Assembly (NCBI GenBank): GCA_965178125.1
Contig: OZ237759.1
Span: forward strand, 434,001-498,000
DNA from: Bilabrum cf. latius
Taxonomy: Eukaryota
DNA length: 64,000 nucleotides
Direction: 5' to 3'
Each line of letters starts with the position of its first letter. Positions within the stretch are counted from its first letter, which is position 1. The position numbers and the translations under genes were made by a program. Shown in pieces: positions 378 to 64,000 of this stretch. A model generated the notes under the pieces. The model was not told the DNA's origin, did no database searches, and saw only the letters and a list, made by a program, of their open reading frames with translations.

Positions 378-3300
378 TCACCCTACAACCAACCGCGACT
401 TGGCCCGGTTTTCGGGTGAAAATCTGTCCATGCTCTGCATGTGCTTCAGCGCACTTGCCTGGGCCATCCTCTCCGCGTGTCTCTGGGTCGACTGCCGCCG
501 AAGACCGCTCACTTTCTGGGCCTGCCCCGCCATGTGGCCATGGATCCCAGCGGCGGTCCCACTCCCAGGCGACCCCTCAGGCTGCGACTGGCCCGCACCT
601 GCACCCGCACCCTCGCCGCTGCTGCTGCCGCTACTACCTCCGATTCCGATTCCGAGTTGTCTCCCCGCCTCCGCCTGCCTGGCTCGCTCCGCCTCCAGCT
701 GTGCCCTCAGCTCAACGTACTAGGCCCGGAGCGCTGCCGTAGACGCGTCCCCCGCAGCCTCGGGGGACTGGTGCTGCGGAACATCCTAATGCGCGGCGGC
801 GTTCCGGGTCCCGCCGTGCGGAGGATGATACTGCTGCTGGCCTGCCAGATAGCCTGCCGGTGCGTGCGGAACATGCTGGTGCGCGGCGCCGGCCCCCGGT
901 GCAAAGCTCTCCGGTGCCCTTGGTGAGAACACGTAGGTTGCAACCGGTTCGGCCTGCGGCTGGGGCGCGCCCCTAGGCTCTAGTGGGGGCTGGGGTTGGG
1001 GGTGGGGGTGAGATGCATGGAGCAAGTGCTCGTGCTCGCTCTGCTGAGAATGCTCGCCCTACCGTGCCGGGTATTCCGCTGGCGCAGCATGACCCATCCC
1101 TTCGTTGTCTCCTCCCCGGGTCCCTGCACCTCCATGCACTCCCGCCTTGGCACCAGCTCCTCGTCCTTGCCCCTGCTCCTGCCCCTGTCCCTGCCCCTGT
1201 CCCTGCCTGTGTTCATGCTCGTGATCGTGCCGGCCACCCGAGCTCGCTGTCCCCCGGATCTCTGCGGCGGCCGCTCCGGACCGTCTGCGGGAGGCCTCCG
1301 TGCTGGCCAAGTAGGATCCGGAGCCGGAAAACTTGCCCTGGCTCTTGGATCCGGCGCCAGAAGCCAAAGAGCCGGCGGAGGCGCCTTTTGGCACGAGTTC
1401 CGCGCTGGGCGCCTGCAGCAGAGAAGCGAGGTCTGGCGAGGCAGAGCGGCCGGTGTTGGCACTCGTCACACCGTTTCCACTATTCATCCTGCTTACCATG
1501 GGCCCCCCGACGGCGGCATCGACCTGGCTCCTGAGCGCGCCCACCATGCCGAGCAGGTCCGCTGTGCTGTCAGGGGCCGGCGCGCCTGTGGAACGTCCAA
1601 GCTCGCCATCCCCCTGCTCCATCTCCTCCTGCTCCTGCTCGTCCATCTCGTCGTCGGACAGCGTCCTCTCCCCCCCCTGCCGCAGCAGCCCGCTCACCTC
1701 CGCGCTGTACATGGACCAGGCCGTGCCCACCAGGACCTTGCTGTCCCTCCCCGCGTGGCTGTACTGGTGGTGGGCGGAGGACGACGCCGGTTTGGACACC
1801 CCGGCTGCGTGCCTTTGGCCAGGGGTCATGTCGCCTGCGCGCATGGCTGCCGTGGACTGCTTGGGATGATGATGATGATGCGTTGCGAAACCGGTCGGTG
1901 CGCGGCGCCCCGGAACAGCCCTCCCAGCACCGTTGAGAAACTCCACCGACGGAACCAGCCCGCCGGAGCTATTGCGCGGCGCCCCTCCGGAACCGTCCAG
2001 AGATCCCCCGGAGGGCACCAGGGCCACCGGCCCCGACAATTCACTCGTCACACCTACGGGACCGCTCCCACGAGGATGCTGATGCACCACGGAGCCGCTG
2101 CCAGCAAGCGACAGCCCGTCATCATCGTCGTCATACCCCCAGTCGCCTGGACCCCCACCGTGGACCGGCTGGCTGTTCCCCATAGAACTAGCGGAACCAT
2201 GCGTCTGCGCGGCGCCTTGTTGCTGGAACCCGACAAGACGCGCGTCCGTGACCCCAACAGGGGGGGAGGGGGGGCCCCTGAGAGCGTCCCCCGAGGGGGG
2301 TGACCTCACCGCGGCCTCCCTCGCCAGCCTGCTGTCCTGGTGGTGGGACAGCTGGAACTCCTTGACCGCGGTGGGTCGGCCGGTGTAGCCCCGGCCCGTG
2401 GCGTGGGGGACCTGGTTCCGCAATTCGCGCTGCGCACGGCCGTGCTCCTGCCTCTCGAGAAACTTCTCGATGCCGTCCTGCTGCAGCTCCTTGAGGTTCC
2501 GCTCCACACGGCGCCGCGCTTTTTTGGCGCGGCGGGTGGGGTTCTGCTTGAGTGTGTTCAGGTCGGGGCTCCCCTTGAAGTCCGGCTTTCGCAGTGCCCT
2601 TCGGATCTCGGGGTCGAGTCGGCTGGGCGTGGCGTTCGCGGTCTCCTCCAGCCGGGGCTTGAAAGTGCACCCTACAAACTTTGCTTTCGTGACCTCCCGG
2701 GCCTGCGCCTCAAGATGTTTCTCCCTCCGTCGCTGCCACTCGTACAGCCTGCTCACGACGCTTGTTCCCTGGGTCTTGCGCTTGCTCTCGATTGCCTTCT
2801 GCAGTCGCCGATGGGAAGGGCAAAGTGAGTGGGTGTGTTGGGGATAGCAAGGCGAGCAGAGAAGCTGCACGGCCTCTCTCTTTGCGTTTCATTACATTTC
2901 AATCTCTCTCTCTCTCTTTTTCTTTTTTCTATACCTCTCACCTTGGATAGCTTCGGCTTGAAGGTGCACTCCCCCTCCTCCCTCTTCCGCCTCTCCTGCT
3001 CCTCCTGCTGCAGCCGCACCTTCTCGTCCCTCTTCTTCCTCCATACGTCCAACCGACGCAGTAGGGGATCCTCGCCGCCCCCGGAAGCATCCACGCTGCT
3101 GCGGGTGGAGGAGGGGAGCGGGCCGTGGGGGTGCCCCCGCTCCTGCCGCCCGTACAATTGCTGCGGCTGCTGCTGCTGGGAGGAGGAGGACAACGGCAGG
3201 GAGGAAGGACGGCCGCTCCTCCCGCGACCGCTCCTACTATCCCGTGGGCCCGAGCTGCGGGAACTACGGTCAGATGCATGGTCGCCACGCCTTCGCCTGC

Positions 3301-3733
3301 GCTCAGAGCCGTCCTGGCGCTGCTCTTGCTACTACTCAAGTTGCTCGCTCCAATCCCCGTTGGCAGGCACCGAGGAGGGTGGAAGCAATGGAGGGGGTAC
3401 GTCTGAGCGCCGGTCAATTGAACGACTATCTTTAGGGCTGCGCTAGCGAGACGCCTTTCCAGTGCTGCTCCCGCTCGATTGCAGTTGCGCTTGGCGCGGA
3501 GATTGGCTGGAGGTAGGCGACCGAGAGAAGGCTGGCTGAGACGGAGCGAACAGGTCGTCAGTTTCTTCTATCATTGCGTCAACAGCGTCTTTGCTATTGC
3601 TGCTCTGAGCAGGCCGAGTTCGCTCCTTTACCGAATCGTTTGGCGTCGAATCGCTAACCATACCGGGTGGCAGGGACAAATCTGCTGAGCTGCCAGGGTC
3701 AGCAAACGCTGCTAGATCAAACTCAAATTCCAT
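378..3733 (-). CDS. Uncharacterised low-complexity/coiled-coil protein with two CTFKP-type motifs (2 exons; TAG read as Gln)
   Basis: ATG at 3733. ORF-track fragments share a frame on each side of a phase-0 GT..AG intron (2941-2799) and are separated only by TAGs (3443, 3332, 3329, 1059, 786, 720). Ends at TGA 378-380. Contains ECTFKPKL and GCTFKPRL motifs and EQLE**QEQRQ (TAG TAG in a Gln-rich run). Confidence 0.7.
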
Positions 3734-3887
3734 CTTATTGCGTGGCTTAAACAGCAGAAAAGTACGTAGCCTTGTACGTGCGGTCCACCGTACGGCAAAG
3801 TCGACTCAGAGGTATTAAATAGTGATGTTTAAATCACCACATGAATTATACCAGAGTTGTCAGAACGGCAACTCGCGTCATTTTACC

Positions 3888-4457
3888 ATGCTTCGAAGCA
3901 TATCTCGGGCAGCCCGCCGGACCTATCGCTCATCGTATGCTATTGGATCACTGAAGCAGCCTTTGGGCTAGCTGGCAAGCCACAGTTTCCGGTCGCACTA
4001 CACCACTGATTCTGCGAAGTCTTACCAGGACGTGTCCAACAAGATTGAAGAGGGCAAAGTAGTGCTGGTATCAGCCACATACTGCCCATTCTGTCATTAG
4101 GTGAAGCGCTTGGCCGACCAGGCGAAATTTTCTGACACTACGGTCTACGAGGTCGATACGCTGGATGGTGAGATGATGTGGCAGCAGTAGTTCGGCATAT
4201 CTTGCGTTGTGATTCAAGTCCGTCCTTCGCTGTGGTCATGATATAACTGCCGTTTTGCTAAGCATGATTTATCCGCAGCTGGGTCCTAGATTCGCGATGG
4301 CCTTACTGAGAGAACCGAAGGCCATTCCACGGTTCCATTCGTGTTCGTGGGCGGCTAGTTCATTGGTGGGGCCACCGAAATGATGAACCAATGGGGCATG
4401 GGACTTCTGCAAGAAAAATTGGACAAGGCTGGTGTCGCGTATGAGGACGACGAGTGA
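3888..4457 (+). CDS. Dithiol glutaredoxin with putative mitochondrial presequence (2 exons; absent from ORF track)
   Basis: MLRSISRAARRTYRSS (Arg/Ser-rich, no acidic residues), then KVVLVSATYCPFCH*VKRL, intron 4168-4278 (GTGAG..CCGCAG, phase 1), then DAGS*IRDGLTERTEGHSTVPFVFVGG*FIGG. CPFC active site, TVP and GG motifs are intact. TAGs at 3969, 4098, 4287, 4356. Stop TGA. Confidence 0.92.
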
Positions 4458-4657: not shown

Positions 4658-6181
4658 TCACTCCGGCTTGGGCTTGATCCGTGGAGGCCCCAGCTTGTAA
4701 TCGTCCAGGTCCTGCTTCCTCGGGTTGAAGTTCTCCAGCTCCACGATGTACTTGCCCTCCACACCGGCTGCCCTCAGTTCCCTGATCTTCCTGGCCTTGA
4801 CCTGCTCCAGCCGGTCGTAGTGGTCCGTACGGTGCTCCACCTCGTGCGCCCCCTCCGCCTGCGTCCGCTCGAACTCTTTGCGCGCCTTGGCCCGCAGCTC
4901 CTCCGCCTGCTTCTGGACCACCTTGACGTGTTCCCTGTCGCGATCGTGACGAGTGCGCCTCGCCTCCTTCTCCTCGTCCATCCACTGGCGCCGCGCGCGC
5001 ATGTTCCGCTCGAACTCCTCCTTGTCTGCCTGGATCATCATGGCGGTCCTCAGCTCCTTCTCGCGCACCTGCTCGTCTCTCACACGCTTGAGTTCCGCAG
5101 CGGCCTCTGCGCGGCGCCGCGCGTTCTCCTCGTCCTGCAGCCGCTGCTGCCTCTGCCCCTCCTCGAAGACCCTCTGGGCCCTCAGCTCGTCCACCTCGCC
5201 CCTCCTGTCCATGAACTTCTGCACGTTGCCCCGCATCTTGAAGGCCTCTTGCTCCCTCTTCTCCCGCGCGATCTCGAACTCGATCTGGGCCTGCACTGCC
5301 TCCTCGTCCATCTGCTTCTGGATCGCCTCGATCCGCCGCTCCTCCGCCACCTCGGCTTCCTTCCTGGCCTTCCTCGCCAGGATGCTCTCCTCGTTGGCCC
5401 GGAGCACCTCCTGACGGAAGACCTTTTTCCTGGCCTCCTGTCTCCTCGCCCTCTCCCTGTCCTCCTCTTCCATCCTCTTGATCACCGCCAGAGTCTCCTT
5501 GGCCTCTTTCTTCAACCTCTCCCCCCTCTGCCTCCTGACCTCCTGGGCGGCCTCCAGCTGCTCCAGGATGTCCTCCTTGGCCTTCTCCCGGATGGCCCGC
5601 TGCCTCGCGTCCCTGTCTTCCCACGTCCTCATCTGCTCCATCCTCTCAATCTCCACCTCCAGGTCCCTGATCTTCTCCTCCTCCTTCTCTCTCTCCACTC
5701 TCAGCTTCTTCTCCTTGAGCTGCCGCTCTCGCACGCTCGCGGTCTTGGCGTACTTGACCAGGCTCGTCATCTTCTTCACCTCGTCCATCGCCTCTTGGTC
5801 CATGAATCGATTCCGGATCCTCTCGCGTTCGGCATCTTCCGCCTCCTCCTGCTCCAGCTCCGACAGAGGCAGAGAGGCCAGCCGTCGCTTCTCTAGCTCC
5901 TTCATGCGATCCTTGCGGGCCGCCTGCGCCGCCCACTGCCTGTCCCTCTCCGCCTCCCGCTCCCTTGCCTCTCGCCGGATGTCTGCCTTGGTTCGAATTA
6001 TGGATTCTTTCTGCATGCGGTGCAGGTCGCTGCCGCGGAGCACGTTGGGTTTCTAGCGGTGCGCCGCTGCCGCAGCTCCTCGGCCCCGGCCCCTGCCTCG
6101 GCCTCGGGCCTGGCTGCCGCGCGTGCGGCTCGCGTCCCCTGCTCGTCCCGCCGCTCCTCCTACAGTTTCTTCTCCAGCCAT
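4658..6181 (-). CDS. CFAP45: Cilia- and flagella-associated protein 45 (TPH-domain microtubule inner protein)
   Basis: Long E/R/K coiled coil with MDEVKKMTSLVKYAKTASVRERQLKEKK and C-terminal KIRELRAAGVEGKYIVELE, typical of CFAP45/CCDC19. ATG 6181 is reached through one TAG (6053). Stop TGA. About 507 aa. Confidence 0.88.
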
Positions 6182-6795: not shown

Positions 6796-8886
6796 ATGGC
6801 AGCAGTAGCAAGCAAGGCATCTGTCGACGATATTTTAGATGCTGAGGTGGAAGAAGTTCCCCTCAACCTGGAGGCCGTCATTGGCTTCAATGGGAAGCTG
6901 AAGGCTGGCCTAATCCAGCACCCCGACGGCGAGCACATCCTGTACCCGCTCGGTTCCACTGTTGTGATTCGAAACATCAAGCGGAACACCTAGTCTTTTT
7001 TGCAGGGGCACACGGATCGAGTCACTTGCATCGCTATCAGCCCGGACGGCAAGTACGCTGCCAGCGGACAGGTTGCCTCGATGGGATTCAGAGCTCCCGT
7101 GATCGTATGGGACGTGGAGGCCGGTATCCGGAACGCAAACACCAGCGATAGGACCGGCGAGCTCGTGCATACCCTCATGCTGCACAAGACTAGGGTGCAG
7201 GACGTGTCTTTCTCCCACGACAACCACTACTTGGCCTCGCTTGGAGGCCAAGACGATAACACGCTCGTCGTGTGGGACATTGACGAGGGAGCGCCCATCT
7301 GCGGGTCACCAGCGGCGTCCCACGCGCAGCTCTGCGTGGAGTTTTACCACGGAGACTCTCTCAAGTTGGTCAGTGCGGGCCAGTACGCCATCAGGACATG
7401 GGAGCTGAACCCCGACACCAAGAGGCTCACCCCGGAGAAGATCAACCTCGCGGGGCTGCAGCGAACCTTCACGAGCGTTGCCATCGACGAGACGGACACG
7501 TTCGCGTGGTGCGGGACGAGGTCGGGAGACGTGCTGGAGATCAACCTTGAGTCGAGGCGCTACACGCGAGCCTCCAAGAACCGGTTCGTGCAGGGGGTGG
7601 CGCAGATCCAGCAGGTGCCCGGGCCCCCTGGAGGGGACGACTGGCTGGTCATCGGTAACGGAGACGGCAGCATCTGCCGGCTGAACACTCGCGATTTGTC
7701 CATCGACAAGGCCATGAAGCTCATGGGCGCGGTGACCTCTGTTGCCATGGACGCGATGAAGGAGGTCATTTTCGCTGGCACCTCCGACGGGAACATCTAC
7801 CGGATCCCCGTGGATACCTTTAAGCCATCCCTCCGCTCCACCGCGCACACGGACCCTATCTCTGACATCATCTTCCCGAGGGATTGCTCGGAGCTCTTCC
7901 TCACCTGCAGCAAGTCCCAGGTCAGGCTGTGGAACGCAGAGACCAGGCGGGAGCTGCTCAGGATCCAGGTGCCCAACCTGCAGTGCAACTGCGCGTGCGT
8001 GACTCCCAGGGGAGACGCCATCATCACAGGCTGGGACGACGGCAAGATTCGCGCCTTCACTCCCGAGAAGGGCAAGGTGATCTTCGTGATCCACGACGCT
8101 CACGCCGTGGCTGTGACCTCGGTGGCGGTTACTGACGACGGGTCCAGGGTTATTTCAGGGGGCCAGGACGGCCGGGTGCGGGTGTGGGACGTCAGCGGCA
8201 AGACGCAGAAGATGATGCTCTCCTTCAAGGAGCACAAGAAGGCCGTGACCTCGATCGATGTGGCTGCGGACGGGGAGGAGTGCGTGAGCTCCTCTTCAGA
8301 CGGATCGTGCGTGGTCTGGAACCTGAGGCGTGGCACGCGGCAGAACGCCCTCTTCGCGTCTACCGTGTTCGGACAGGTGCAGTACCACCCCGACGAGTCG
8401 CAGCTGGTGACCTGCGGCAGCGACCGGAAGATCGGATACTGGGACACCGTGGACTGTTCCCCCATCCGGTAGCTGGAGGCGTCCACGGGGGCACTCACGT
8501 CCCTGCACCTTGACAGGGACGCGAGGACGTTCGTAGTGGGAGGTGCAGACCGCACGGTGAAGGTGTGGATGTACGATGAGGGCGTGCCGATTGCCTTCGG
8601 GAAGGGTCACTCCGGAGCCATTGCCAAGGTGAGGAACAGCCCCGACGGCACGTACGTCGTGTCGGTGGGCGAGGAGGGGGGCATCTTCATCTGGACCGCG
8701 CCTCGGATCCCAGCCGCGTTCGGCGGAGCCGACGATGCTGCCGCTGCTGGCGAGGGTGCCAAGGCGGACGGTCGATATGCGGACGAGGAGGGCTACTACG
8801 GCGAGGAGGGCAAGGAGGAGGGCAGGTATGCGGGGGAAGGCGCTGCAGTCGGAGGGGCCGGAGGGGGCTACAGTGATGGCAGGTGA
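6796..8886 (+). CDS. CFAP52: Cilia- and flagella-associated protein 52 (WDR16), WD40 repeat protein
   Basis: LNLEAVIGFNG..HPDGEHILYPLGSTVVIR, LASLGGQDDNTLVVWD, RELLRIQVPNLQC, YHPDESQLVTCGSDRKIGYW. Three ORF fragments in one frame are joined by TAG at 6991 and 8470. Stop TGA. About 696 aa, no intron needed. Confidence 0.93.
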
Positions 8887-9168: not shown

Positions 9169-11832
9169 TTACTTCTACGGCCTCCTGATCCGGCGCCCCC
9201 CCCCTCGCCTTCCCTTACTGCCACCACGACCGCCGCGCTTCCCCTGCGACCCGCCCTTCTTGTCCTCAGTGACCTCCTCGACCTCATCGTCATCGTCGAC
9301 ATCATCACCCTCCTCCTCGCTGATCTCTTGCACCTCCCCGCTGCTGTCCCCGTCGTCCTCCATGCTCTTTGAGGACGCGGGAGGAGGGGAGGCCTCGGGG
9401 CCCGTCGCACCGTTACTGCCGGAAGCGGCAGATGATGCTGTACTGCCACTGCCAGGCTACTTGCCATTACCGCCGTCCCCATTGCTCGTCCTGCCTCTCT
9501 TCTTAGCGTCCAGCGCCTCCCGCAGCTCAGCAGGAGTCATGCACCCCGCCAACTTGCAAAGGAGAGGGTCGAGCTTATCGATCGTGAAGCCCTTGAGTGG
9601 GTCCACGGGGACGCTTGGGTCGTCTGCAAGCACCCGCATCGCGCGCCAACGCCATCCGTCATCGTGTAAGGGGGTGGTATCAGGGTCTGCGAAGGGGTTG
9701 GATGGATCCATGGCCTCCCTGAGTTCCTTCATCAACTGCTCCCTTGGGGCCTGACTGGCCATACCCGACTCTGCGGTGGCGGTCTGCCAGGGCCTCATGA
9801 TCCCAACCGAGTCCCAGAGCCTGCGCTTCTTCGGAACCGGGGCCGCTTCCAATTCACCGTCGTCTTCCCCACCGGTTGCGTCGCCTCCAGCCCCACCCCC
9901 GAGCTGAGCCAGCATGGCAGCCTGATAGGCCTCGAAGCCTCCCTCCATGGACGGAGATGGTTCTTCGCCCCCCTTGCCGCTCGCTGCTTCCCGGGAGTCG
10001 CCCTCAGTGTCCACAAGCACCCGCTTCCGCTTGCGGCCGGGGACCATGGGCCCATCCCCGCACTCAATTCTTGTCGCTTCCATGGCAGCCTGAGACTCGG
10101 CGCGCACTATCGATACAGTGTCGGCGCTGCTGGATCCATCGATGTCCGAATCCAATGTTGCTTCGAAGCCCGGCAGGATCATACGAGGCGCGTCCGCCGC
10201 AGGAAGCTCGAACGGCCTGCTGCCTGCCCTCTTCCACTGCAGCCAACCCGCCTCCCTCTTCAGCAGCTCGCGCACCTCCCGCCCTAGTCGCTTGCCCGCC
10301 GCTGGCCCCGATCCGCGGCCCGTCCCCGTGCTTGGCACAGCCCCCCCGTGCATGCCCCTTGCTGCCATGACCACCTCCCCGCACGTGTCTACAAGCTCCA
10401 TCGCGCGCTTCGCAAGGGCCGGCGCCGTCTCTCCGAATGCTGCCTCCACCGCCGGGGTCGGGCGCCGCGCTTCCGGCAGGTTCCGCACGTGCTGCTCGAG
10501 GATGAGTACCTGCGTCGCGACCAGCAGCCTCATCTCCGGGTCCTCCAGCTGCAGGCCCAGGAGGCTTGGGGAGGCCGTGTACCTCGCGATGCTGCGGGCC
10601 GCCTGCTGGTCCTGCCTGTCCTGCTGGGACCACGTCGACGAGGATGAGGATGAGGATGAAGATGAAGATGAAGATGAAGATGAAGATGAAGATGAAGATG
10701 AAGATGAAGATGGCATGCCAGGTCCACTGCTGGCGATACCAGTAGACGATGGGGATGAGGACGATGATGTAGCAGCATCAGCCGGTGCCGCCTATGCTGA
10801 AACAGCCGCCGCAGGGCCCCGGCTGCTCCTCGCCCGGCGGTGCATCTCATCCAAGACCTCCAGCGCATCGGCAGCGAAGGTTCGCCAGCTCTCCGGCGTT
10901 TCGATGCAGGCTGCAGGATTCGCGAAGGTTCGCTGCAGCCCCCAGAACTTACCGTACATGGCCCAATCAACCTCATGCTGCTGGCCGGCAGCATCAGCCC
11001 CGCCCCCGCCCCCGCCCCCTTTCCCACCACTGGCTCTCCCCACTTCTTCTTTTTCTTCATCATCCCCATCTTTCTCTGTGTTTCCTGCTGGCGGGTTCTC
11101 AGTGACCACGCTCACGTCCATGTTGGTGGCCCCCTTGAGGTTGAGCCCGGACCGTTCCGAGAGCGGGAGAACAAAGGAGAGGAACATGAGCACCCTTCCA
11201 CGAAATGCCGTGTCCTGTGCCTCTGACAGGCGTCGGAGCAGCGCGTTGCTCAGCCGGATGAGCGCCAGCTTGCTGGCGGGGTTTCCTTTGGGGGGCACGA
11301 AGAGCGGCTGCATGATCGTCTGGCTGCGGGCCTCCAGGAGAGCGAAGAGGGACTCACAGTGGTCCGCGCTCGTGGCGTGGATGGCCTCTTCCACAAGTAA
11401 AAGAGGGAGGGATGGATCGACCGGAACGGTGCTCTTGCTCGCGCCGGGGGCGGCGGCCGCAATCGCGAAATCAAACGAGGCTTGCACGATCGGTTCCAGC
11501 AGACCGGCTCTAGAGGATGGATCCTGCGACGCAGCCGAGAATTGCACTATATTCTACAAAGCTAATCGACGCGTTGGAATCTGCTGACAGTGCGTGGGCT
11601 TGCTAGAAAACAGTCTCACTACTTTAGATACTACTTCCAGGGATGCCTTTCGTACGACTGCTTTCAGCGCCTGTGCAGCAGTTGGGCTCTAGTCCACGTT
11701 CGCCAGCCATGCCTTCTAAATAACGTCTTTGATACCGGGAACGTTTGCTTTTAATGATTGGAGTTGCTAAGCCATGGATTCCTGCGATGCAGCGGGTAGT
11801 ACTGAGGGGGATGCATCGCTGAACAGAACCAT
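9169..11832 (-). CDS. THOC1: THO complex subunit 1 (Hpr1)-like
   Basis: LIRLSNALLRRLSEAQDTAFRGRVLMFLSFVLPLSERSGLNLKG, YGKFWGLQRTFANP, LLGLQLEDPEMR, LKREAGWLQWKRAG. One frame with TAGs at 11767, 11716, 11689, 10792, 9457, 9175. Stop TAA 9169-9171. Possible 66-bp intron 11619-11554. Start may be 11832 or 11775. Confidence 0.85.
10638..10712. repeat. (GAGGAT/GAAGAT)n hexanucleotide microsatellite encoding poly-Ser in THOC1
   Basis: About 12 tandem units visible directly; reads TCA/TCT/TCC on the minus strand. Confidence 0.9.
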
Positions 11833-12902: not shown

Positions 12903-13037
12903 CACGATGCTTTCGATGAGCGGACGAGCGCGCCTCTGTCGCGGACAAACGTGGTCGCAGAGACCAGCTGTGAATTTAGCCCTTGGGCAGCTCGAAATAT
13001 TCCTGTGAGCATGTGTTCCAATTCACTTCAAATTCCA

Positions 13038-40130: not shown

Positions 40131-40191
<61 letters not shown>

Positions 40192-52500: not shown

Positions 52501-55500
52501 GCCACGGGAGACGGCACGGGAGCTGACGCCGGCAGATCGCCAGCCAGCAGCAAAGGGCCTATGATGGTCGTGCGGTCGGGCGCTAACGCGCCGTCTGCCC
52601 TCCATACGCCAAATCAGGCCCATCTGCAGCGTCACGTCACTGATGGGAGCCAGGCCTGTGCAGTATCCGCCTCTGGAGTGATACCATACAGGCAGCTGTC
52701 TGTCGACTCATCTTCTGAGGCTGGCTCTGCGCATGGATCGCGCATGAGAGCTGCCGACTCTACCGCTTTGCAACTGGCGGGTACCACCGAGGCTATCAGC
52801 GGTGAATCCACTTCACATACTCCCAGCTCCCAGTCGATGCCAGCGACTGGGACAAGGCCCCTCGACTCTCCAACACCCGGAGGAGGAGAGCTTGCAGCCA
52901 GTCAGCGGGACTCGCACGGTGGCAGCAGCAGGACCCCCACCGGTGGGAGTGAGGCAGGCCTAGGCAACAGTGCCAAAGACAACAACAGCAGCTCAGGCAA
53001 TGCGCGGTCCTCCGGGGACCACCCAGGCGGGTCACGATCTGCTGACCGCAACACAGGCACAGCCAGCGGCAGCACTAGGAGCAGGGCGACCTCTTCCGTC
53101 CGGTTTGCGGAGCAGGACCAAGAGCATGGCGCCGGTATGGTACCAGGGAACAGCGCAGGGAGCAGCGCAGGGAAGCTGTCATCGACGAGTTCCCGCGTTG
53201 GATCCACGAAATCCAAGAGGGTAGGCGATGGTGAGGGCGATGGAATGGCCCAGCACAGCCACACCAAGCCTATCAGAGACTCTTCCATCCCGCCGTCAAA
53301 GCTGCCCTCCTCTGACGTCATCGTGGTCCTCGTACCCCGTGCAAAGCTCCTGCGCCGGCAGTAGCCGCGAGGACCCCCCCGCCGCACGGTCCACTGGCGC
53401 GCCCTCTCGCAGTACGCCCGCTTCATCAGCTGCTAGGAAGCCTGCTGCGCCTGCGGGCCCGGGCTGGGTGCCTTCCTGGCCCAGGATCACGTGCAAGTGG
53501 CCCAGACCGGTACCTCGGGAACCATCGCGTAGCGAACCGCGCAGAATCTTCGCGCCAGCGTGCAGGGCCTGTCTAGCTACCCCGTTAGTCCTGAGGTGCT
53601 AGCAGCAGTGGAGGCGAGACTCCCCGCATTCGCGAGTGCAGAGCCACAGGCAGGCGCCATGAAGCCCGCGGCCAACATGCCGTCACACCCGCGGGTGGCT
53701 CCCTCACCGGGAACCAAGGGCCAATCCGCAGACCTGATGCATTCCAGTGCCTTCGATGAAATTGAACGGTAGAACGCAGCGGGCGCGACCCTGTACAGAG
53801 TCATGGCAGCCGAGTCCACGCTGCCGTCCTGCTGCGATCTGGTGGGGGCGTGCTGCAGCTCGATCAGCTGCGGGGCCGTGAGCTGGGGCGCGGCCACGAC
53901 GTCCCACGCGATCGGGTCGGCCCTCTGCACACTGCTGTGCCTGCTACCGTGCACCGCATTGCCGCGCAGGTACAGACGGGATGCCGCGAGATGCCTGTGT
54001 CGGGAGGATCCAGTCGATGCCCTCATGTAGGGGGTCACCATGTGGGACCTGCAGGCAGCTCGGTGCAGCGACGACAAGGCGGTGCTCCAGAGACTTGGGA
54101 CCGGGGGGAGCGGCGGCGTGGATCCGTCGCAGGTGCCGGCACCCGGATTCGACGCCTTTCCCGAGGCGATGCCCATCGGTCCCAAGCTAGACAACATCGC
54201 GCAGCACGGCAACAAGACGCTGCGCTCTCATTTCAGCAGTGCCAGCACAGGCGTTGGCAATGATTGGCTTGGGTCGGCCCCTGGTCAACCCACCCTGGGC
54301 GAAGACACTGCAGGCATCCTGCACACGATGCAGCTGAGGGCGAGCGAAGCTCTCGTCGGAGCCATGGCGTGGATGGCGCTGCGCAAGGGCGGCAACCTTG
54401 GCCCGTCTGATTTCGCCCGCATTCGGGAGTCGCTGGGCCATTGGGGACTATTCACGAGGGACGCGGACCGCGCCTCCTTGTTGCACACCGTGCTGGACCC
54501 AGGGCAGCTGAGCAGACCTCCCAGGCTCTGGACGGCGCACGACTTCGGGACCGACCGCGCAGGTAAAGCAGAAAAGGATTCCACCGAAAGCGACGCAACG
54601 GACGCAGCAAGTGACGATGATGCCGACGCTGGCATGGGCGGGGGTGTGCTGGACACGAGCGCCAACCGATCGAGGAATACCGGCTCTCCCCACGGAACAC
54701 CTCGCGCAGGGCAACGCCATGCGTCGGGGGGAGTTGCACCTGCCCGTGGGAAGCGCCGTGCCTCATTCGTAGGCGACTCACGCGGCGTGTCCATGGGCGT
54801 TGGAACCAGTGGGAAGAAACGAAGGAGCAGCGGTGGGGTCGGAGGGGGCATTTCGGGCGGACGGTCCGCTGCAGTGCAGATGGCGCTGGACAGCGTAAAC
54901 CACCCGAACCGTCCCGCAACAGCATCGCGACATCGCGCTGCATCTGCCGCGTCGGTCACATCGGCATCCGGGCCCCGTGGCATGGTCAGAAGCAGCACTC
55001 GGTCCACAGCAGGCACCAGACACGGCAGTCCCGGTGCCAGGGCACGATCGATGGATTCTCCCAAGAGTCGGGCCGATCGGATCCTAAGCTCTACAACGGC
55101 ACAAGGCGCGGGGGAGTAGGGATCGATCACAAGCAGATCGAGAAGAAGGGAAGGGACGGGGCAGGGGAGACGAGCCGGCGGGGCTCGGTTGCGCGGCGGG
55201 CGCTCGAGCGAGAGACCGGGGTCTTCCAGCTACAGCTCAAGCGGCGGGATCCTGAAACCGCAGGGAGGCGTCATCTCGCGGGGCAATTCATCTTCTCGCC
55301 GCGCCCAGCGGAAACAGCAGCGGTTGCAGCATCGCGGCAGGTCGGGTGCCTCGCACACGTCACACACGTCACACGACTCATCGCGGTCCGTGTCGCGATC
55401 CACCCGGCAGCCCCATCACTCCGCCAGGTCGCCAACACAGGGCTCAGGGGCCGGCTTGGGTGACGGGGATGGACGTTGGGCGGGGAATGCAAAGGACATG

Positions 55501-57342
55501 GGAATGACTGTGGCAGACCAAGACGTGTCAGAGCTGATTGGAGCCTCCCTATCGCTGAGACCTGGGGGACACAGCCGGCGGAGGGCCGACTCAGGCAGCA
55601 CCGTGGACACGGTGGAGGAGGAGGAGGCGGCGCGTCAAGCAGAGGAGGAGGAGGCAATGGAGCGGTTCGGCAACTAGCGGTTCACGTTTGATGACCTGGC
55701 TATGTGCGTTGGACTGAGCTGGAGGCAGCGCCTCACCCGTTTTCAGAGGCGGCGACGGGCAGCCAGCATCATCATGTAGCAGAGCAGCGGGCGGGGGGTA
55801 TCCACCGCTGCTGCTGGAGCGAAGGAGCCGGGAGGCGAAGGGCGTGCAAAGAGTGGCGCATCCGTAGCACCGCTTCCCCAGCGTGATCTAACGCGAAGCG
55901 AGCACAGCATGGGGGCGGGTGCAGGAATGAGCATGGGCGGCATGAGCATGGGGGCGGCCAGCAGCCGCAGCGTCAAGCTCCGACCCTCCGGGGAGAGCTC
56001 GAGCAGCCTGGCCACTGGAACCTCCGGCGGGAAATACACCATGGCTGGCATGCTGTCAGGCCGGGATGCAGCCAAGATCCGATTTGCCAAGCCTTGGCCC
56101 TCTGGATCGCTGCACCCCGCCCTGCAGAAACACGTCGACACGGTGTGGCAGCAGGCACGCGTGGCCAGGCTGCGAGCCATGGTGGAGGCAGCGCCCCAGC
56201 TGCGACAGAAGCTGGCCGTGAAGGGCTTCTCGCTAGACGCTCTGCAGGATCTTCATCGCCTTGCTGAGATTGAGCTGAGGAGGATTCGGCGGACGGACAC
56301 TGCAGCGCTCAACAGGCGGGGGATCGACACGACTCGAAACGATGCAGATGACGCAGACTCGATCGACAGTATAGCGAGGAGCCCTGCCAGTCGCGCCAGG
56401 AGCGGCGGCAATATTACCGTCAAGTCTCACAGGCCGTTTGCGGGCGGTGTAGGAGGAGGAGAACAAAGTGGCGAGCCCATCGATGGGCAGGACGGTAGCA
56501 GCGGTACGGCTCTCGATCGAATCACTCGATCTAAGTCGGATGGGGCCGCGCTTCGGACCTTCGACCAAGGCCACCCTATCCTCGGTAAGGCCGGTGCTCT
56601 GGAGCACAACAGCACCGGCTTGACCGCGGCCGCCTCTGGCCATTCCCTGGTTGCAGGAGGCTCCAATTAGATGCAGCCGGCCGCGGTGCCGTCAGTGGGC
56701 AGCAAGGGGTCGAATGAGGACAGCATGCGGCTCGAGTCGGTGCGGCAGGAGGATCGCAGGTCTGTCCGCGGCGTCGCTGCCAAGGCTGATGGCAAGGACG
56801 GGGCCGTTGTTCCTCTGAGCGGGAGGAATCCCCTGCGGCGGGTCGGGTCATCCAATGAGGATGGGTCTAGTCAGCACCAGCAGGGGGGCGTGGAGCGGTC
56901 CAGCCTGGGGCAGCGGCTGCACGAGCTGTCTCATGTCAAGCTTCCGAAGCTGCTGGCGATTCCCAAAGGGGGGGGAGGCCAGGGAGTGGGCAGGAGGAGC
57001 AGCATGGGCACGGCACGAAGGGTGCCGGGGAAGAGGGCGAGCACGGGTGGGATAGGGGCGGGGAAGGGCAGGAGGGTAGTGTCCACGACCGTGGCGCGGC
57101 ACCACGCCAAGGGGAGCGGGCAGGGGCACTTCGACTTCGGGGCGAGGGTCCCAGGGAACAACGGGAGCGGGAGCGGCAGGTTCGGCGGCGGTGGTTCGGC
57201 CAAGGCGACGAAAGACGAGCTGATTTCGACTCCGGGTCCCATCGGGGCCGGTGGCACATCCTCTGGTGTTGGTGGGACGATCGCCAAAAACCCTTCCGGC
57301 AAGAGGAGGAGGGACAGGAGGCTAAGGAGGACCAGCCAGTGA
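49573..57342 (+). CDS. Very large uncharacterised protein (~2590 aa), mostly G/S/A low-complexity, with Cys-rich and hydrophobic segments
   Basis: Nine ORF-track fragments are all in one frame, separated only by about 11 TAGs over 7.8 kb. Stop TGA. Hydrophobic hairpin near 51930-52080. Confidence 0.75.
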
Positions 57343-57628: not shown

Positions 57629-60217
57629 TCAGGCCTTGCTGAGGCGAAGGAACACGGCGTCATGCGTGGGCACAGACGCCGAGAACGAGCCGGTGTGCGC
57701 GCCGAGGTCCTTGTTGTTGTAGATGTCGAACACCTTGTAGCTGTCGCTGGCCGAGATGCCGATGTCGGACCACTGGGCAGTGATGGTCTGCGTGCCGCTG
57801 GAGCGGCTGATCAGAGCCACAGCGTAGTCGCCGCCGGATAGGGGCCCCGCCCAGACCTCCTGCGCCCCTGCTGGCACGTCATCGAAGGTGGACACGCACA
57901 TGTCGCTGCCGGAGGAGGCTGCAGACCTCAGCTGCTTGCTGCTCTGGTCGTACACCCACTGCTGCTGGCTGGGCTGGCCAGCGCCGCAGGGCAGAGTCTT
58001 GAGCTGCATGGCGTTGAAGCCAGCCTCCACAGCCTCAGGGTGCTTGGCAGAGGGCATGGGGACTGCGGTCAGGCACTGTCCGGTGCCCTGGCTGACGATC
58101 TTGCCGGCGTTGAAGGTCCACTGCTGGTTCTTGCCGTCGCAGCCGTCGCAGCCGAGGGGGGCACCACCTGCGTACTTCTCGTCTCCGTAGGCGTAGCCCT
58201 TGTACCCCGCGTCCGAAGAGCATGAGTACTCCTGGACGATGTTGCCTGCGGTGCTGTTGTAGCAGCAGTAGATGTCAAGGCAGTTGCCATCATCCACGTT
58301 CTTGATCTGCTGGTCCGAAGTGATCTCCCACTGCTGCTTCTGCTGACTGGGGTTGCACGACTCCACGAAGATGGCGCTGGAGCCTAGCGCGCCGAGCCTC
58401 TGCAGCTCCTTCTTGTCCATGCCAACGAAGCCGGGGTGGTTGGGGATCTCAACCTCGGTATCGGGGCTGCCAGAGGAGGCCACACGGTGTGCCTGCACGC
58501 CAAGAGGGTCTTGGTTCACGGCGATGGCGTCCTTGTTGAGCAGGATGGCCTTCGTGTCGTCGGACATGGTGGTCACGTCGCAACCAACGAGCAGGGGGGC
58601 CTTCATCATGGACCAGAGCGCGAAGTGGATGCGGTACTCGGCTGTGGTCATGCCGCCGTTGCCGACCTCGAGCATGTCTGCGTGGGGGGTAAGTTCAAGC
58701 AGGCACTGCACAAGATAATTCGATCCAAGGAAGAGACGATGGTGATGCTGTGACAGCCGGTGTCAACTTGACAAGCGGGCGATAACGTTAGAAACCCATA
58801 GAACGGGCTTGCCTTTGACGGATGTCTATACACGAGGTACAACAAGCACAGCGCAGTGCAACCTCACCGGGGTCGTTCCAACCGCCGGGGCCAGCGTACA
58901 GGTACAGGGGCTCGTTCTGGTCAAGCCTCGAGGTCATGGACTTCCAGTTGTCGGAGATGTCCCCGGTGGTCCTCCACGAGTTGCCCACTGCGGGGGCCCA
59001 AGTGGCGGGGTTGTCCACTCCCCACTGCGGTTATGGATGGGTTGGGTGGGGGTGGAGATCGGTGGTGATGGATGGGTGCGATAGGCCTAGGCAATCTTGA
59101 GGGCGAGGAAGTCGAGAGAACGAATGGAATGGCACCGCTTGGACAGGCAGACCCGTCCATGCCTTGCCTTGGGCCACCAAGCCAACAGCGCAGGAGCCCC
59201 GTGCATGGCTTGCATTAAGGAGACTCACCTCGCACATGGAGAAGAAGATCTTGTGCCCGGTGGCATTGAGCGCATCCCGCATCACCGGGTACCTTGTCTC
59301 AGGCTTGGTGCCGTCGCTGTTGCAGTTGTCCACCTTGATGTAGTCCACGGACCATGCAGCATACTGCTCGGCGTCCTTGGTCTCGTAGTGGAGGGACCCT
59401 GGGCGGCCGGCGCACGTCTTCGTGCCTGCGTGCAACATGGTGAAAAGGATCATCTTAGCTGTCGCAACCGGTGCGATTCATATGCAGCGCGTTGCCAGTC
59501 GATGCAGTTGCAACAGTTGGCTTACCGAGATCAGTGTACATGCCCCACTTGAGGCCCTTGGAGTGCACGTAGGAGGCCAGCGCGGGGATCCCCGACGGGA
59601 AAGTGGCGGGGTCTGCCTCGATGTAGCCAGTCGCATTCCGTGACTTGGCCCAGCAACTGCGGAGCGATAGCATAAGGACCATGCGAGGTACGATGATTGC
59701 TCGAAAGATACGATTCTCTGGCTTGAGATACCAATTTTGCTAGATATACAGGATGATTATGTAGTCGTTGCGAAGTCTGCATTTGGCTCGCATTCTACCA
59801 GAAGTCTCGAGGTAAGCTCACTCATCAATATTGCAGTAAATATATCCTGCATCTTTTAGCCCGGAGGATACCATAGCGTCCGCAGTGTTACGGATAAGCG
59901 TCTCATTCACGCCGCAATGGAAGTGATTCCAGGTCTGCGCGCTTAAGCTCTAAATGTCGTGAGCATGTGATTGAATCCATACGCAATAATTCACATGTAT
60001 ACTAAAATACACAAGCATCCTGTTTTCTCACATTGAATCCCATCTGGGGAGTCTTTCCGAGCCCCTGCGAAAGTAGAGAGATCCAACGGCAACTGGTCCA
60101 CGTGCGGTTCATCTCGTGATAATACAGCAATCATTGCCCTCCAGCAGAGCTTCATACATTGTCAAGGGCGTATGTGGACGCCGCAAGTGATGCTACTACC
60201 GCCAGAGCCGACAGCAT
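57629..60217 (-). CDS. Alpha-galactosidase (GH27) with inserted ricin-B lectin module (7 exons)
   Basis: Signal peptide, then [66 protein letters not shown]. QxW repeats (QQWEIT, QQWTFN, QQWVYD) precede QEVWAGPL. Six GT-AG introns, stop TGA, no TAG codons seen. Confidence 0.93.
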
Positions 60218-60419: not shown

Positions 60420-63400
60420 TCACCTCCGCCTGGTCTTGAGCGCGAAGCTCGCCATCCCGAAGGGCCCCCAGCCCACCGCGTTCCTGGCCCGAACCCGGAA
60501 CACGTACTCGGTCGAAGGAGATAGACCCTCCACCGCGCACTCGCACTCGCCGCAGTCCTCCACCACCCGCCTCCAGGTGTGACGAGTGCGCAGCAGCCGC
60601 AGCCGGTCCTCGGCGCTCATCCTGGGGTCGAGTGGGCCACCCGATTCGCCGCCCTCCATGGCCATGCGGAACCGTTGCGCGGCGACGTACGAAGCGAAAC
60701 CTTCCTCTTCCGCAGCGGCAGCTTCCATCGACCCCATCGCCCTAGGCACGACCTCCATCCCCTCCACAAACTCGGAATAGAAACGAAGCAACCGCGCAGT
60801 GGTTTCCCCTCCTGATGGTGGTGATGACGACGACGAGGCCCTGGCACCCATCCCACTCGTCACATCGGGTGCGGGCAGCACCCTAGCGCTGCCCGCCTCC
60901 GCCATCTCCACACAGTAGCCCAGCACGGCCGCCCCGTTGTTCCTCCCGGGTCGCCAGCGGATCACCATGGTGGTGTCAAGGCGGGACGCCTGCACCGGGG
61001 GCAGGGGCGGGGGCAGGGGCGGCGCGGCGGGGCCGCGCACGGGAAGACTCGGAGCCGAAAACACAGAGGAGCCGGACTCCGCGACTGCTCTAACCCGGAA
61101 CTGCCAGGCGGTCCCCGGGGTCACGTCGGCCGCACGCCAGAAACACGAGTGGTGCGCGTGCAGGCCCAGGGCCCGCGCCTCGGTTGCAACCGGGTCACCA
61201 TCCAGGCACCCCTGCAGCACCGACACGACCCCATCTGCTCCGACCCTGCCCGATCCCATGGCGGCCTCCACCCCTGCAACCCCGCTGGCACCAGACAGAC
61301 CGCCGGACTGTCTCACTACCGAGACACCGCTTCCATTGCTATGCTTCTGCTGGCCCAAGTTTCGGATGGACCCACCTCTCTTCGTTGTTCCCTGCACTGC
61401 GAGGCTCTCCGTCGGTTGCAACCGCACCCCCTGCGGCAGCCCCGCCCGCCGAGTCAAAGCCCCGCTCGCAGACACGTCGTGTTCCCTGACGAACCCACCC
61501 GTAACACTCGTTACACCGGATGCACGGCCATCAGCAGGCCTGGATTCAGCAGATGAACCGCTTCCGCTGCCCACGATGTTGGCACCTGCTCCAAGCGCCG
61601 CTGCGTTCGTCCTTAGGCGGCTGCTGTCACCGCTGCTGACCGCCGCAGATGCACCGCCCGACGGGGCCAACCCTCGCTTCTAAACAACCGACTCACGGTC
61701 CTCCGCCTCCTGGCTCGTCATGTTCCCCGGCTCGTCCTCCTCCTCGTCACTGCCAATGGGAGAGTGGTCACGGGTGCCAGGTTCCGCTCGGGCGCCGCGC
61801 AATCCATCATGAGCCGCGGTGGCGCCATCGGTGCCGACGTGGGACGACTTGTCCACGCCCCGGTCGTAGCGGTCAGCGTGTGCGTTGGCGATCCCGGGAT
61901 CGAGACCCGGAGCCACACCCGCCCCGATACCCCTCCCGCCTGCCCCCCCCTTCAGCGCTGCTTCCCTCCTCTGCCTTGACATCATCTCCTTGCCCCGCGC
62001 TTTCTCGATCTCCCGGGCCAGCGCGTCCGAGACCGCCATTGGGTCCCCACCCCCTGGGGCCGCCCGCAGACTCCGGAGCCCGGGAGACACCTCCGGCGCC
62101 GCGCGGCAGTCCTCAGCGGAACATCTTGCGACGAGCCTCCACGGCATGGCGCACCTCCAGCCCCGCCTGAGCACCTCCTCCGTGTCCTCCTCCACGTCTA
62201 GGCCCCCGTGCCATACCAAGGGGGCTGAAGTTGTCCGGGCCTGGCTGGTGGAACCGCTGCCGTGCAGTGCTCCAAATGTGGCACCTTCGTGCGATGCACC
62301 CATGGTGTTTTGTTCCCCGGGGGTAGGGGAGCCCTCACCCAGCAGTGCGGCTCGCACGGATTCGGCTGTGGGCAAAGAGCCGTCAGCCCCTCCGGCGGCC
62401 CAGCGAAGCGGAGGCTGCGGCATCGCCAGCTTGACCATTTGCTCCTCCCTCTCGTCGTCGGAGGGGTTCCCCTGGTCCCCGGGTCCCACCACCCTTCGCG
62501 CGCACACCTCGTAGCAGCGAACCTTCGCTCCCCTGGACCGCGGCGCGCTCCAGCGCAGCAGCAGAGAGAAGCCCGTCCCCGCCACCACAAGGGGCTGCCC
62601 GGGGACACCTGGCTCCAGGGAGGGCAGACGCACTGCATTGCCGCGCACGGACGGCGCGGACCACTCGTCACACCGATTGCCCCTGGCAGATACCCGGAAC
62701 TCGTACCTGCGCCCCTGCCGGAGCCCCCTCACGACCGCTTGGCACAGCCTGCCCGCGATGCCCGTGGTCTCTGGTACGAGCGGGCCGGTCACGCCGGCTG
62801 TGCCCCTCCCGCTGGCCTGTCTCCTCATTAGAGCGTCCTGGATCTTGGGACCACCAATGCTGTGTGACGAGTGAGTGGCCGGGGGCAGGGGCACGAGGCC
62901 ACGTTCCAGTTCCCACGCCCTCTGCCGGTCCTTGGCAAGCAGACCCTGCCTCGCCCCTGCTGCCTCTGCCCCTGCTCCGGCATGCAGGGAGACTTGAAGG
63001 GCCGCTCCATCCGCGACGTCCTCACTCGTCACACCAGACACCCCTGTGCCGGTCCCTGTGCCACTCTATGCTGCTGCCGTGGGTAGCCCCTGGCCCTGCT
63101 CCGATGGAGCCTCTTGCGACCAGCGCAGCTGCTTGGCCTCGCGCTCGCTCAAAACCACCCATGGATTGCGGCCCCGCCCGCTTGCGAGCACTGCGGAATG
63201 CGACTGACCGTCCGAGGCGCCCGATGTGACACTGCCCGCAAGCTGCTCATCTCTCTCGACTCCTTCTCCTCCTCCTTCTTCATTTTCTTGTCCTCCCTGC
63301 AGCAGGGCAGCCTGGTCCCCTGGCTCCCTCAGGATGGCCTCCTCACCGGTTACAACCAATTCCAGCGGAACCACGGCGGCGCCGGGCACGTCCTTCCACC

Positions 63401-64000
63401 TCCCGCGCGACACGTACTCTCCTAATCCTAATCCCGGTGCAGCAGCAGCAGCAGATCTAGATGGTGACCCGGGGCGATTGCCCACCACCGCCCCGCGACC
63501 ATGTCCACCTGCGCTAGCATCGTTGACGTCGATCTCAAGGTCAGACGAACCTTCGCTCTCCGCGGCAGGTTCCTCGGGCCTCTTGGTCGCGACCGTGCTC
63601 GCCCAGCCGCACCGCACGAGCAAGTGCCTGGCTTTCTGCGCGGCCTGCAGCACCCGCTCCAGCGCGGCGCCCTCGAGTGCGGAACCTCCTCCCCCACCCC
63701 CACTGCCACCCCCTACTGTCCCGAGTGCGGCGGTCGCTCGTACCAGCTCGGCGGCTTGCTTCCTCGCCTGCTCCTCGAGCAATGCCCGGCCAGCACCCCC
63801 CTTTCCGATGGCCTCCGACCCCCCGTCACCGGCCTCACTCGTCACATGCAGAAGCTCGGAGGTAGTGGCGCTGCCGTGCGACGCTCCGGAATACCGAGGC
63901 TGTTTTCTGCGACCAGTTCCACCCAGCCCTTGGTTCCGCTCTGCGCGGCGCCTGCGGAACCTCCACCCGCCCCACGCGTCGGACTCGCGACCAAAACCCC
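60420..64000 (-). CDS. Fibronectin type III repeat protein (5' partial)
   Basis: GLRQGRRYEFRVSARG, LLLRWSAPRSRGAKVRCYEV, WQFRVRAVAESG, GLSPSTEYVFRVRARNAVGWGPF. TAGs at 63066 and 61680, stop TGA. The frame is open to the window edge. Confidence 0.85.

Follow-up and report, generated by a model that had tools for sequence, protein, structure and literature searches.

The question raised by this locus is whether the codon TAG, which occurs in frame in nearly all of its genes, ends translation or encodes an amino acid. The locus is a 64,000-nucleotide (nt) stretch of contig OZ237759.1 (positions 434,001–498,000, forward strand) with a G+C content of 62%; the whole stretch is called the window here, and positions are counted from its first letter. 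We consider it very likely that the window belongs to the nuclear genome of a heterotrophic flagellate, a stramenopile with Cafeteria (Bicosoecida) as its closest named relative, in which UAG encodes glutamine and UAA and UGA (mostly UGA) act as stops. This code equals NCBI translation table 15, and translation of the window with table 15 gives a stop-free CFAP52.

Under the standard code, the longest stop-to-stop open reading frame (ORF) of the whole window has 694 amino acids. Reading TAG alone as sense raises the longest ORFs to 2627, 1663, 1393, 1329, 1267, 1192, and 1000 amino acids; with TAA alone as sense the longest ORF is unchanged, and with TGA alone it has at most 900 amino acids. 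When TAG was read as sense in 20 block-shuffled windows, the longest ORF reached at most 860 amino acids (median 524), compared with the 2627 observed.

The gene models are 20 ORF segments bounded by TAA and TGA only, which correspond to 19 genes (an ALYREF-like gene comprises two segments). Their 17,455 codons hold 107 in-frame TAG and no TAA or TGA, the two zeros being a consequence of the ORF definition; independent support comes from the ORF lengths, the shuffled windows, and homology. In its two remaining frames, this DNA contains 232 TAG, 101 TAA, and 580 TGA in 34,910 triplets; by hand calculation, 17,455 codons free of constraint should contain ∼340 TAA or TGA. TAG therefore has nearly the same density in frame as off frame (6.1 versus 6.6 per 1000), with TAA and TGA excluded in frame. 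At least one TAG is present in 18 of the 20 segments and in 18 of the 19 gene models; the segments without one are the last exon of an alpha-galactosidase gene and, after intron trimming, exon 2 of the ALYREF-like gene. If read as glutamine, TAG makes up about 13% of all glutamine codons (107/831, at a CAA:CAG ratio of 158:566).

Three of the 107 TAGs are intronic by RNA (11554 in THOC1 and one in each of the two ORFs entering the ALYREF intron), and the TAG at 12042 probably lies 5′ of the true start of its ORF (11856–12902), leaving about 103 exonic in-frame TAGs. The initial annotation, made from the DNA sequence, had counted about 100 in long ORFs, a figure that is borne out in size, although some of the TAGs it included sit in introns.

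Pfam scans, run with TAG written as X, support ten genes, read through their TAGs. The genes discussed first are the following:

3819..4457, plus strand: glutaredoxin in two ORF pieces (3819–4241 and 4242–4457) with PDB glutaredoxin matches; TAGs after CPFCH, at 4287–4289, and at 4356–4358.
4658..6181, minus strand: ciliary-type protein with a trichohyalin-plectin-homology (TPH) domain, 507 codons, one TAG (residue 43), Pfam PF13868 at 2.9e-39.
6796..8886, plus strand: CFAP52, 696 codons with a TGA stop; TAGs at 6991–6993 (residue 66) and 8470–8472 (residue 559).
9169..11892, minus strand: THOC1 (THO complex subunit 1), TAA stop at 9169–9171, Pfam PF11957 at 6.4e-49; introns 11781–11864 (84 nt) and 11523–11618 (96 nt); the TAG at 11554 is intronic, the other six are exonic.
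11856..12902, plus strand: ORF without a Pfam match, TAA stop at 12900–12902; five TAGs, three of them within the last 19 codons.
13038..17216, minus strand: HAT-repeat and RRM protein (SART3/Prp24-like), 1392 codons with six TAGs, one of them in PKQPK-TAG-PK at 14520; Pfam matches RRM_1 and, weakly, HAT_PRP39_C.
17411..19109, minus strand: ALYREF-like RRM protein, exon 1 at 19109..18489 and exon 2 at 18250..17411, separated by a 238-nt GT..AG intron (18488..18251); exonic TAGs at 18906 and 18894.
19311..22289, minus strand: CTF18 (RFC-like AAA+ clamp-loader subunit), 992 codons, TAGs at residues 469, 610, and 936, TGA stop.
43316..46099, minus strand: kelch-repeat membrane protein, 927 codons, four TAGs, Pfam kelch.

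Protein homology continues beyond the TAGs, as had been proposed in the initial annotation for CFAP52, CTF18, and glutaredoxin. CFAP52 has Pfam WD40/beta-propeller matches, its residues 16–656 align with the 658-amino acid Cafeteria protein, and CFAP52/FAP52 chains in the PDB match it at full length across both TAGs (E 1e-175). CTF18 shows Pfam AAA and RFC lid matches, and its C-terminal EGFSNAVRR motif, downstream of all three TAGs, aligns with human CTF18 (PDB). The glutaredoxin TVP/GG exon (4242–4457) likewise contains TAGs, and in the kelch protein the TAG at 43481–43483 (residue 873) lies inside the conserved motif RYAMKRI-x-RKLKAVQE. The RRM_1 match of the ALYREF-like gene is split into two halves over its two ORFs.

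Whether the TAGs persist in mature mRNA was assessed with contigs from four sequencing runs (X2, X5, X6, and X7, with X5–X7 coming from two studies) aligned to positions 6700–22400. In X5, X6, and X7, but not in X2, position 18250 of ALYREF is joined to 18489; the 238 nt skipped begin and end with CT..AC on the plus strand, which is GT..AG on the gene strand. Two joints with the same splice ends are found in THOC1 (11522 to 11619, skipping 96 nt, and 11780 to 11865, skipping 84 nt) in an X5 contig, again not in X2, which is unbroken at even depth over 10719–22400. The presence of GT..AG joints in X5–X7 and their absence from X2 identify X5–X7 as spliced transcripts and X2 as DNA.

Neither base differences nor small insertions or deletions are reported in the contigs over 6700–22400. 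At least 16 of the 25 in-frame TAGs of this interval lie unchanged inside listed X5–X7 contig pieces, and five of them are on contigs that also carry a splice joint, namely three in THOC1 exon 2 (11767, 11716, and 11689) and two in ALYREF exon 1. One TAG (11554) is inside the spliced-out THOC1 intron. The eight exonic TAGs outside the listed pieces (10792, 9175, 12042, 15576, 13431, 20883, 20460, and 19482) are uninformative. Both CFAP52 TAGs are covered by X5, X6, and X7 contigs with zero differences, four TAGs of the HAT/RRM protein are inside listed pieces from the RNA runs, and for ORF 11856–12902 such contigs span 12133–12974. In mature nuclear mRNA, UAG serves as a sense codon. Because the TAGs stand unchanged in spliced contigs, editing or splicing is ruled out as a general explanation, and the contigs lose TAGs only inside true introns. 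It counts against this reading that the RNA evidence consists of assembled contigs, in which rare editing or minority termination at TAG would escape notice.

The same data bear on the notion that the TAGs are not translated at all, being located in pseudogenes, created by assembly errors, edited in the RNA, or removed with small introns. In its favor are the three intronic TAGs and the two THOC1 introns, which are multiples of three and free of TAA and TGA, so that others may hide. However, the runs bearing splice joints carry the TAGs unchanged in two studies, TAGs lie within conserved domains at positions where the alignment to homologues is ungapped, and pseudogenes would have gained TGA and TAA as well, neither of which occurs in the 17,455 codons. 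Moreover, an independent relative (L001, described below) has TAGs elsewhere in the same genes. We regard the probability of untranslated TAGs as close to nil.

The ORF of THOC1 reads through both of its introns, which become visible only in the RNA contigs; similar short introns may be hidden elsewhere among the long ORFs of the window. In CFAP52, the contigs of all three RNA-like runs stop at 8793–8835, before the TGA at 8884–8886, although the C-terminal tail is conserved in L001. These contig ends probably reflect an assembly break in a GA-rich repeat.

Leaky readthrough of UAG without reassignment was also considered and rejected, since up to 18 TAGs per ORF would leave almost no full-length product.

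The identity of the encoded amino acid is best addressed by orthologous codons. A search of metagenome contigs with CFAP52 led to L001 (7535 bp) and L002 (1681 bp). Synteny between L001 and the window extends over positions 4661–11424 (TPH, CFAP52, and THOC1) at 70–79% DNA identity, and the L001 proteins are 88% (CFAP52) and 52% (THOC1) identical to those of the window. L001 represents a different species, and its in-frame TAGs sit at different positions from those of the window. We defined a codon column as well aligned when at least 9 of 16 flanking residues were identical, which gave 1421 columns between the window and L001 (amino acid identity 82%; glutamine 3.9% of residues). TAG is present on one side in 10 of these columns, with CAG as partner in nine and GCG in one, and CAG–CAA pairs in the same columns also number nine. 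CAG thus pairs with TAG as often as with CAA, indicating that TAG behaves as a synonymous glutamine codon. Codons never found opposite TAG include GAG (n = 205), AAG (n = 134), TTG (n = 22), TAC (n = 31), TGG, TCG, and CTG. In CFAP52, L001 has CAG at both window TAGs, and the window has CAG at three L001 TAGs; in TPH, four L001 TAGs face window CAG, and in THOC1 an L001 TAG faces window CAG within LLRRLSEAQDTAF.

A THOC1 fragment from a closer relative (P0201; 507 amino acids, 86% identical) ends exactly where the window has glutamine. This truncation appears to reflect a standard-code gene caller that halted at TAG. The THOC1 homologue search gave three matches and no Cafeteria sequence.

More distant homologues point to the same residue. 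For CFAP52, 75 orthologue-length matches were kept from the 150 matches listed; among these, residue 66 is present in 52 homologues and is glutamine in 33 of them, and Cafeteria, the nearest homologue, has glutamine at both TAG sites. Residue 873 of the kelch protein is glutamine in its three closest homologues (5 of 10 matches aligned). The glutaredoxin TAG at 4287 corresponds to glutamine in two PDB proteins, human GLRX2 and poplar GrxS12, and to alanine in a third. Summed over eight usable distant-homologue columns, the log2-odds are +4.25 for glutamine and −1.10 for glutamate, the next after it, and below −2.8 for all others (Lys −7.67, Tyr −9.92, Leu −11.01). The assignment of UAG to glutamine in the initial annotation is therefore supported, by CAG in 9 of 10 orthologous TAG columns, by conserved-glutamine columns in CFAP52, kelch, and glutaredoxin, and by the positive score, and the columns do not favor another residue such as glutamate.

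Glutamine-rich surroundings and a pair of paralogues had been put forward as further arguments; they involve the following genes in addition to the HAT/RRM protein:

24828..28526, plus strand: repeat-rich protein, paralogue of 30158–32989, 1232 codons, nine TAGs, no Pfam match.
30158..32989, plus strand: paralogue of 24828–28526, 943 codons, 14 TAGs, no Pfam match.
33273..38261, plus strand: low-complexity protein of 1662 codons with 18 TAGs, three of them in CAG CAA TAG CAA TAG ACC TAG at ∼36687; no Pfam match.
38796..42452, minus strand: protein without a Pfam match, 1218 codons, 11 TAGs, including QQQQHLQQ-TAG-QQ at 40203.

Several observations weigh against glutamine. One well-aligned orthologous column pairs TAG with GCG (alanine), and in poorly aligned parts TAG faces CGC, CAT, GAT, GCC, ACG, and GGG. 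One window TAG faces glutamate in P0201, in a low-complexity stretch. Residue 559 of CFAP52 is glutamate in 26, valine in 18, and glutamine in 2 of 74 homologues. In CTF18, residues 469 and 610 do not favor glutamine (residue 610 is proline in 8 and lysine in 4 of 19, with lysine in the human protein), in columns that are variable and little informative (20 of 25 matches aligned). Kelch residues 112 and 422 do not favor glutamine either, and residue 269 is also variable or non-glutamine. The sequence context of TAG gives no clear glutamine signal: within three residues on either side, glutamine reaches only 1.28 times expectation, and the best-fitting context profiles are those of Val, Ile, Pro, and Tyr, by trivial margins. 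The cited strings at 40203, 36687, and 14520 are all found in the sequence, and the argument from glutamine-rich surroundings carries no statistical weight. Between the two paralogues, TAG faces TAG twice and GAG, TTG, CAG, and CGT once each; the TAG/CAG pair claimed earlier therefore exists, but with GAG, TTG, and CGT also facing TAG it has no statistical weight. No informative TAG position was aligned when THOC1 and the HAT/RRM protein were compared with the PDB.

Such columns are what could be cited for UAG encoding another amino acid (Glu, Lys, Leu, or Tyr, which are precedented or one mutation away), in particular glutamate at CFAP52 residue 559, proline or lysine at CTF18 residue 610, GAG and TTG in the paralogues, the single glutamate in P0201, and the glutaredoxin TAG at 4356, whose position in GG-x-FIGG aligns with Lys, Thr, and Gln (PDB). 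Against this stand the CAG partners in 9 of 10 well-aligned columns, the complete absence of GAG, AAG, TTG, and TAC opposite TAG despite 205, 134, 22, and 31 occurrences, the negative log-odds of all four candidates, and the glutamines of Cafeteria at both CFAP52 sites. We judge another amino acid to be extremely improbable and retain glutamine.

The reading frames also indicate which codons remain as stops. TGA closes 17 of the 19 gene models and TAA two (9169 and 12902), matching the stops named at the outset. The stops of CFAP52 and TPH are TGA in both the window and L001, and the TAA of THOC1 in the window aligns with a TGA stop in L001. Homology-supported full-length genes contain no in-frame TAA, and adding TAA to TAG as a sense codon barely changes the ORF lengths and lengthens no genes. 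The absence of in-frame TAA and TGA, the lack of any gain from TAA as sense, and the matching L001 stops support the earlier claim that UAA and UGA are kept as stops, with two TAA stops being all that is available for UAA.

If UAA and UAG both encoded glutamine (NCBI table 6, a code also used by some ulvophytes), in-frame TAA might be missing simply through GC-richness. Indeed, TAA is rare overall (160 and 185 on the two strands of the whole window versus 451 and 398 for TAG), and 2 of 19 genes stopping at TAA is thin evidence for a stop role. At a CAA:CAG ratio of 158:566, however, the 107 TAGs should be accompanied by ∼30 in-frame TAAs (hand calculation), and none is observed, whereas 101 TAAs occur off frame in the same DNA. 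Together with the nearly unaltered ORF lengths, the full-length homology-supported genes free of TAA, and the alignment of the THOC1 TAA with a TGA stop, this makes table 6 very unlikely, and we continue with UAG as the only reassigned stop.

The distribution of TAGs near gene ends is less even. Four TAGs fall in the last 10 codons of the 19 gene models, compared with ∼1.2 expected (hand calculation, Poisson p ∼0.03), and this moderate over-representation just before the stops leaves some probability to a residual stop role. In THOC1, a TAG precedes the stop by 2 codons (9172–9177); in ORF 11856–12902, TAGs precede it by 4, 9, and 19 codons (12873–12890), and in ORF 30158–32989 a TAG lies 4 codons before the TGA (∼32975–32980). 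The pre-stop TAGs may be vestiges of UAG stops that translation has come to pass over, or may retain residual stop function.

The second possibility corresponds to a dual UAG, which would encode glutamine inside genes and still terminate in some contexts, for example near the mRNA 3′ end. Context-dependent codes are known from Condylostoma, karyorelictids, and Blastocrithidia (UAA there). The excess near gene ends would fit such a code, and with ORFs bounded by TAA and TGA, a terminating TAG with a short chance extension behind it looks like a sense TAG. On the other hand, the same excess is expected from former TAG stops read through to the next TGA or TAA, the three genes with an L001 orthologue all end at TGA or TAA at matching positions, and the sample of 19 genes is small. 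In addition, ambiguous codons are depleted near the true stop in context-dependent codes (passages of PMC11687900), which is the opposite of the enrichment seen here. A dual role is thus unlikely, and UAG as an ordinary glutamine codon remains the favored reading.

Which organism uses this code can be approached through its nearest homologues. The two genes with named close matches, CTF18 and CFAP52, both have Cafeteria roenbergensis/burkhardae as best named homologue. CTF18 is 49% identical to the Cafeteria roenbergensis protein over the conserved part, and CFAP52 is 56% identical to that of Cafeteria (845 bits, compared with at most 627 bits for the next full-length orthologue). A FastTree phylogeny of CFAP52 was calculated from the window, L001, and 29 hand-picked top matches of the 75 orthologue-length sequences (604 columns). 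In this tree, the window and L001 (support 1.0) are sister to Cafeteria (0.947), followed by one further sequence (0.998), with a chrysophyte-containing group nearby. Cafeteria is a bicosoecid stramenopile and a cultivable bacterivore whose genomes have been sequenced. The two genes and the single-gene tree point to a probable stramenopile related to bicosoecids, and they support the earlier view that the organism is not a ciliate and that its code may have arisen independently; that the placement beside Cafeteria is based on two genes must be held against it.

Public environmental and assembly data contain at least two more relatives, one of the L001 type (two metagenome records) and one of the closer P0201 type. 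At least one other species in metagenomes shares in-frame UAG. In contrast, the CFAP52 of Cafeteria is deposited as a full-length protein of 658 amino acids with glutamine where the window has TAG, from which we infer that Cafeteria uses the standard code.

For comparison with other codes, we draw on passages of two papers (Panek et al. 2017, PMC5304391; McGowan et al. 2024, PMC11687900). Nuclear codes that give UAG and UAA different meanings are rare; these passages document them in a single fornicate, a single rhizarian, and a small number of phyllopharyngean ciliates. In Iotanema spirale (Metamonada: Fornicata), UAG encodes glutamine and UAA is the primary stop, as described from a transcriptome (Panek et al. 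2017, PMC5304391). The window shares with Iotanema the change of UAG to glutamine, termination at UAA and UGA, and a predicted tRNA-Gln(CUA). It differs in belonging to an unrelated supergroup, in its stops (UAA is the main stop there, versus TGA in 17 of 19 gene models here, at 62% G+C), and in the evidence, which is a transcriptome there and genomic DNA with introns plus RNA contigs here.

The phyllopharyngean ciliates Hartmannula sinica and Trochilia petrani also read UAG as glutamine and prefer UAA as stop (McGowan et al. 2024, PMC11687900). As in the window, UAG alone is reassigned to glutamine and widely used, and UAA and UAG are uncoupled; unlike these ciliates, the window organism groups with Cafeteria in the stramenopiles. 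Assignment of both UAA and UAG to glutamine (table 6) is reported in the passages drawn on for many ciliates, hexamitid diplomonads, and others (PMC5304391, PMC11687900). Table 6 codes resemble that of the window in turning a stop into glutamine, with UAG and CAG one step apart, and differ in that TAA is not sense in the window. UAG encodes leucine, with UAA kept as a stop, in the rhizarian exLh and in an uncultivated phyllopharyngean clade (same passages; PMC5304391, PMC11687900). These codes, too, reassign UAG alone and keep UAA, whereas in the window leucine scores −11.0 bits and neither TTG nor CTG ever faces TAG in the well-aligned columns. NCBI table 15 ("Blepharisma nuclei; some phages: TAG=Q") is a formal description of the code that is silent on lineage and mechanism.

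Because table 15 also applies to some phages, a phage or giant-virus origin of the window was considered; it is ruled out by the spliceosomal introns and the nuclear housekeeping genes.

A full-text literature search, covering mostly open papers, returned no nuclear stop-codon reassignment in stramenopiles or bicosoecids, with the caveat that the genome and the runs date from 2025 and a description may exist or be on its way. The one stramenopile item it returned was a citation on labyrinthulean mitochondria. The code itself is already known from three other lineages, and it is the lineage that appears to be new. We give about even chances to the broader claim that this is the first nuclear stop-codon reassignment in Stramenopiles, namely an independent UAG-only glutamine origin among bicosoecid-related free-living flagellates (at least two to three environmental species), in a GC-rich genome with UGA as main stop and UAG at background frequency. 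The GC-rich, UGA-dominated setting contrasts with the UAA-dominated lineages described to date and speaks against a route in which AT pressure simply eliminated a rare codon.

Mechanistically, UAG would be decoded by a tRNA-Gln with anticodon CUA that does not read UAA and that could most simply have arisen from tRNA-Gln(CUG) by one anticodon change. In parallel, eRF1 would have lost efficient recognition of UAG while keeping that of UAA and UGA. The eRF1 of Iotanema carries a T32G change in its N-domain, at a position contacting the third base of the stop codon. The same combination of tRNA and eRF1 changes is argued for the UAG-only codes of Iotanema and the phyllopharyngean ciliates in the passages cited above (PMC5304391; PMC11687900). 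To the disadvantage of this proposal, there is no tRNA gene in the window, L001, or L002, and the window contains no eRF1 gene; likewise, no Rfam family reached the gathering score in the window.

If the proposed code and placement are true, Cafeteria and the lineage of the window form a close pair without and with the change, in which tRNA-Gln, glutaminyl-tRNA synthetase, and eRF1 can be compared. The GC-rich, UGA-terminating background also allows the capture of a probably common stop codon to be tested. In practice, when genomes and metagenomes are annotated, standard-code gene callers will fragment every gene of the window organism and its relatives, the 507-amino acid THOC1 of P0201 being an apparent example, and the records of these organisms should be translated with table 15.

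The remaining gene models of the window are the following:

378..2183, minus strand: ORF without a Pfam match, 601 codons, three TAGs.
2753..3733, minus strand: ORF without a Pfam match, 326 codons, three TAGs.
23375..24571, plus strand: short-chain dehydrogenase, 398 codons, one TAG 19 codons before the TGA stop; Pfam adh_short at 3.3e-39.
47401..49107, minus strand: Arg/Glu-rich ORF without a Pfam match, 568 codons, three TAGs.
49573..57342, plus strand: longest ORF, no Pfam match, 2589 codons from the ATG, 11 TAGs, no TAA or TGA.
57629..58675, minus strand: last exon of an alpha-galactosidase gene, including a ricin-B domain; 348 codons ending in TGA and free of TAG; Pfam Melibiase_C, Ricin_B, and the final part of Melibiase_2.
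60420..63998, minus strand: fibronectin-III-domain protein, 1192 codons, two TAGs, extending past the window edge; Pfam fn3.

ORF 11856–12902 overlaps the first codons of THOC1 on the opposite strand (11856–11892). Its true start is probably an ATG ∼66 codons in, which would make the two genes divergent with a very short spacer.

The tandem paralogues 24828–28526 and 30158–32989 are identical at 404 of 909 aligned residues, and their C-terminal thirds are far closer. In the first of them, ADTDN(G/D)A(R/S)GAR-like repeats form a long array, and the neighboring protein at 33273–38261 has about ten HASASLEAS repeats. Long poly-Ser tracts are found in THOC1 and in the protein at 38796–42452.

On the minus strand, the region 5′ of the alpha-galactosidase last exon (58676–60419) contains short ORF pieces that resemble more exons (e.g. 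59031–59477). Unlike most of its neighbors, the alpha-galactosidase gene seems to contain multiple introns.

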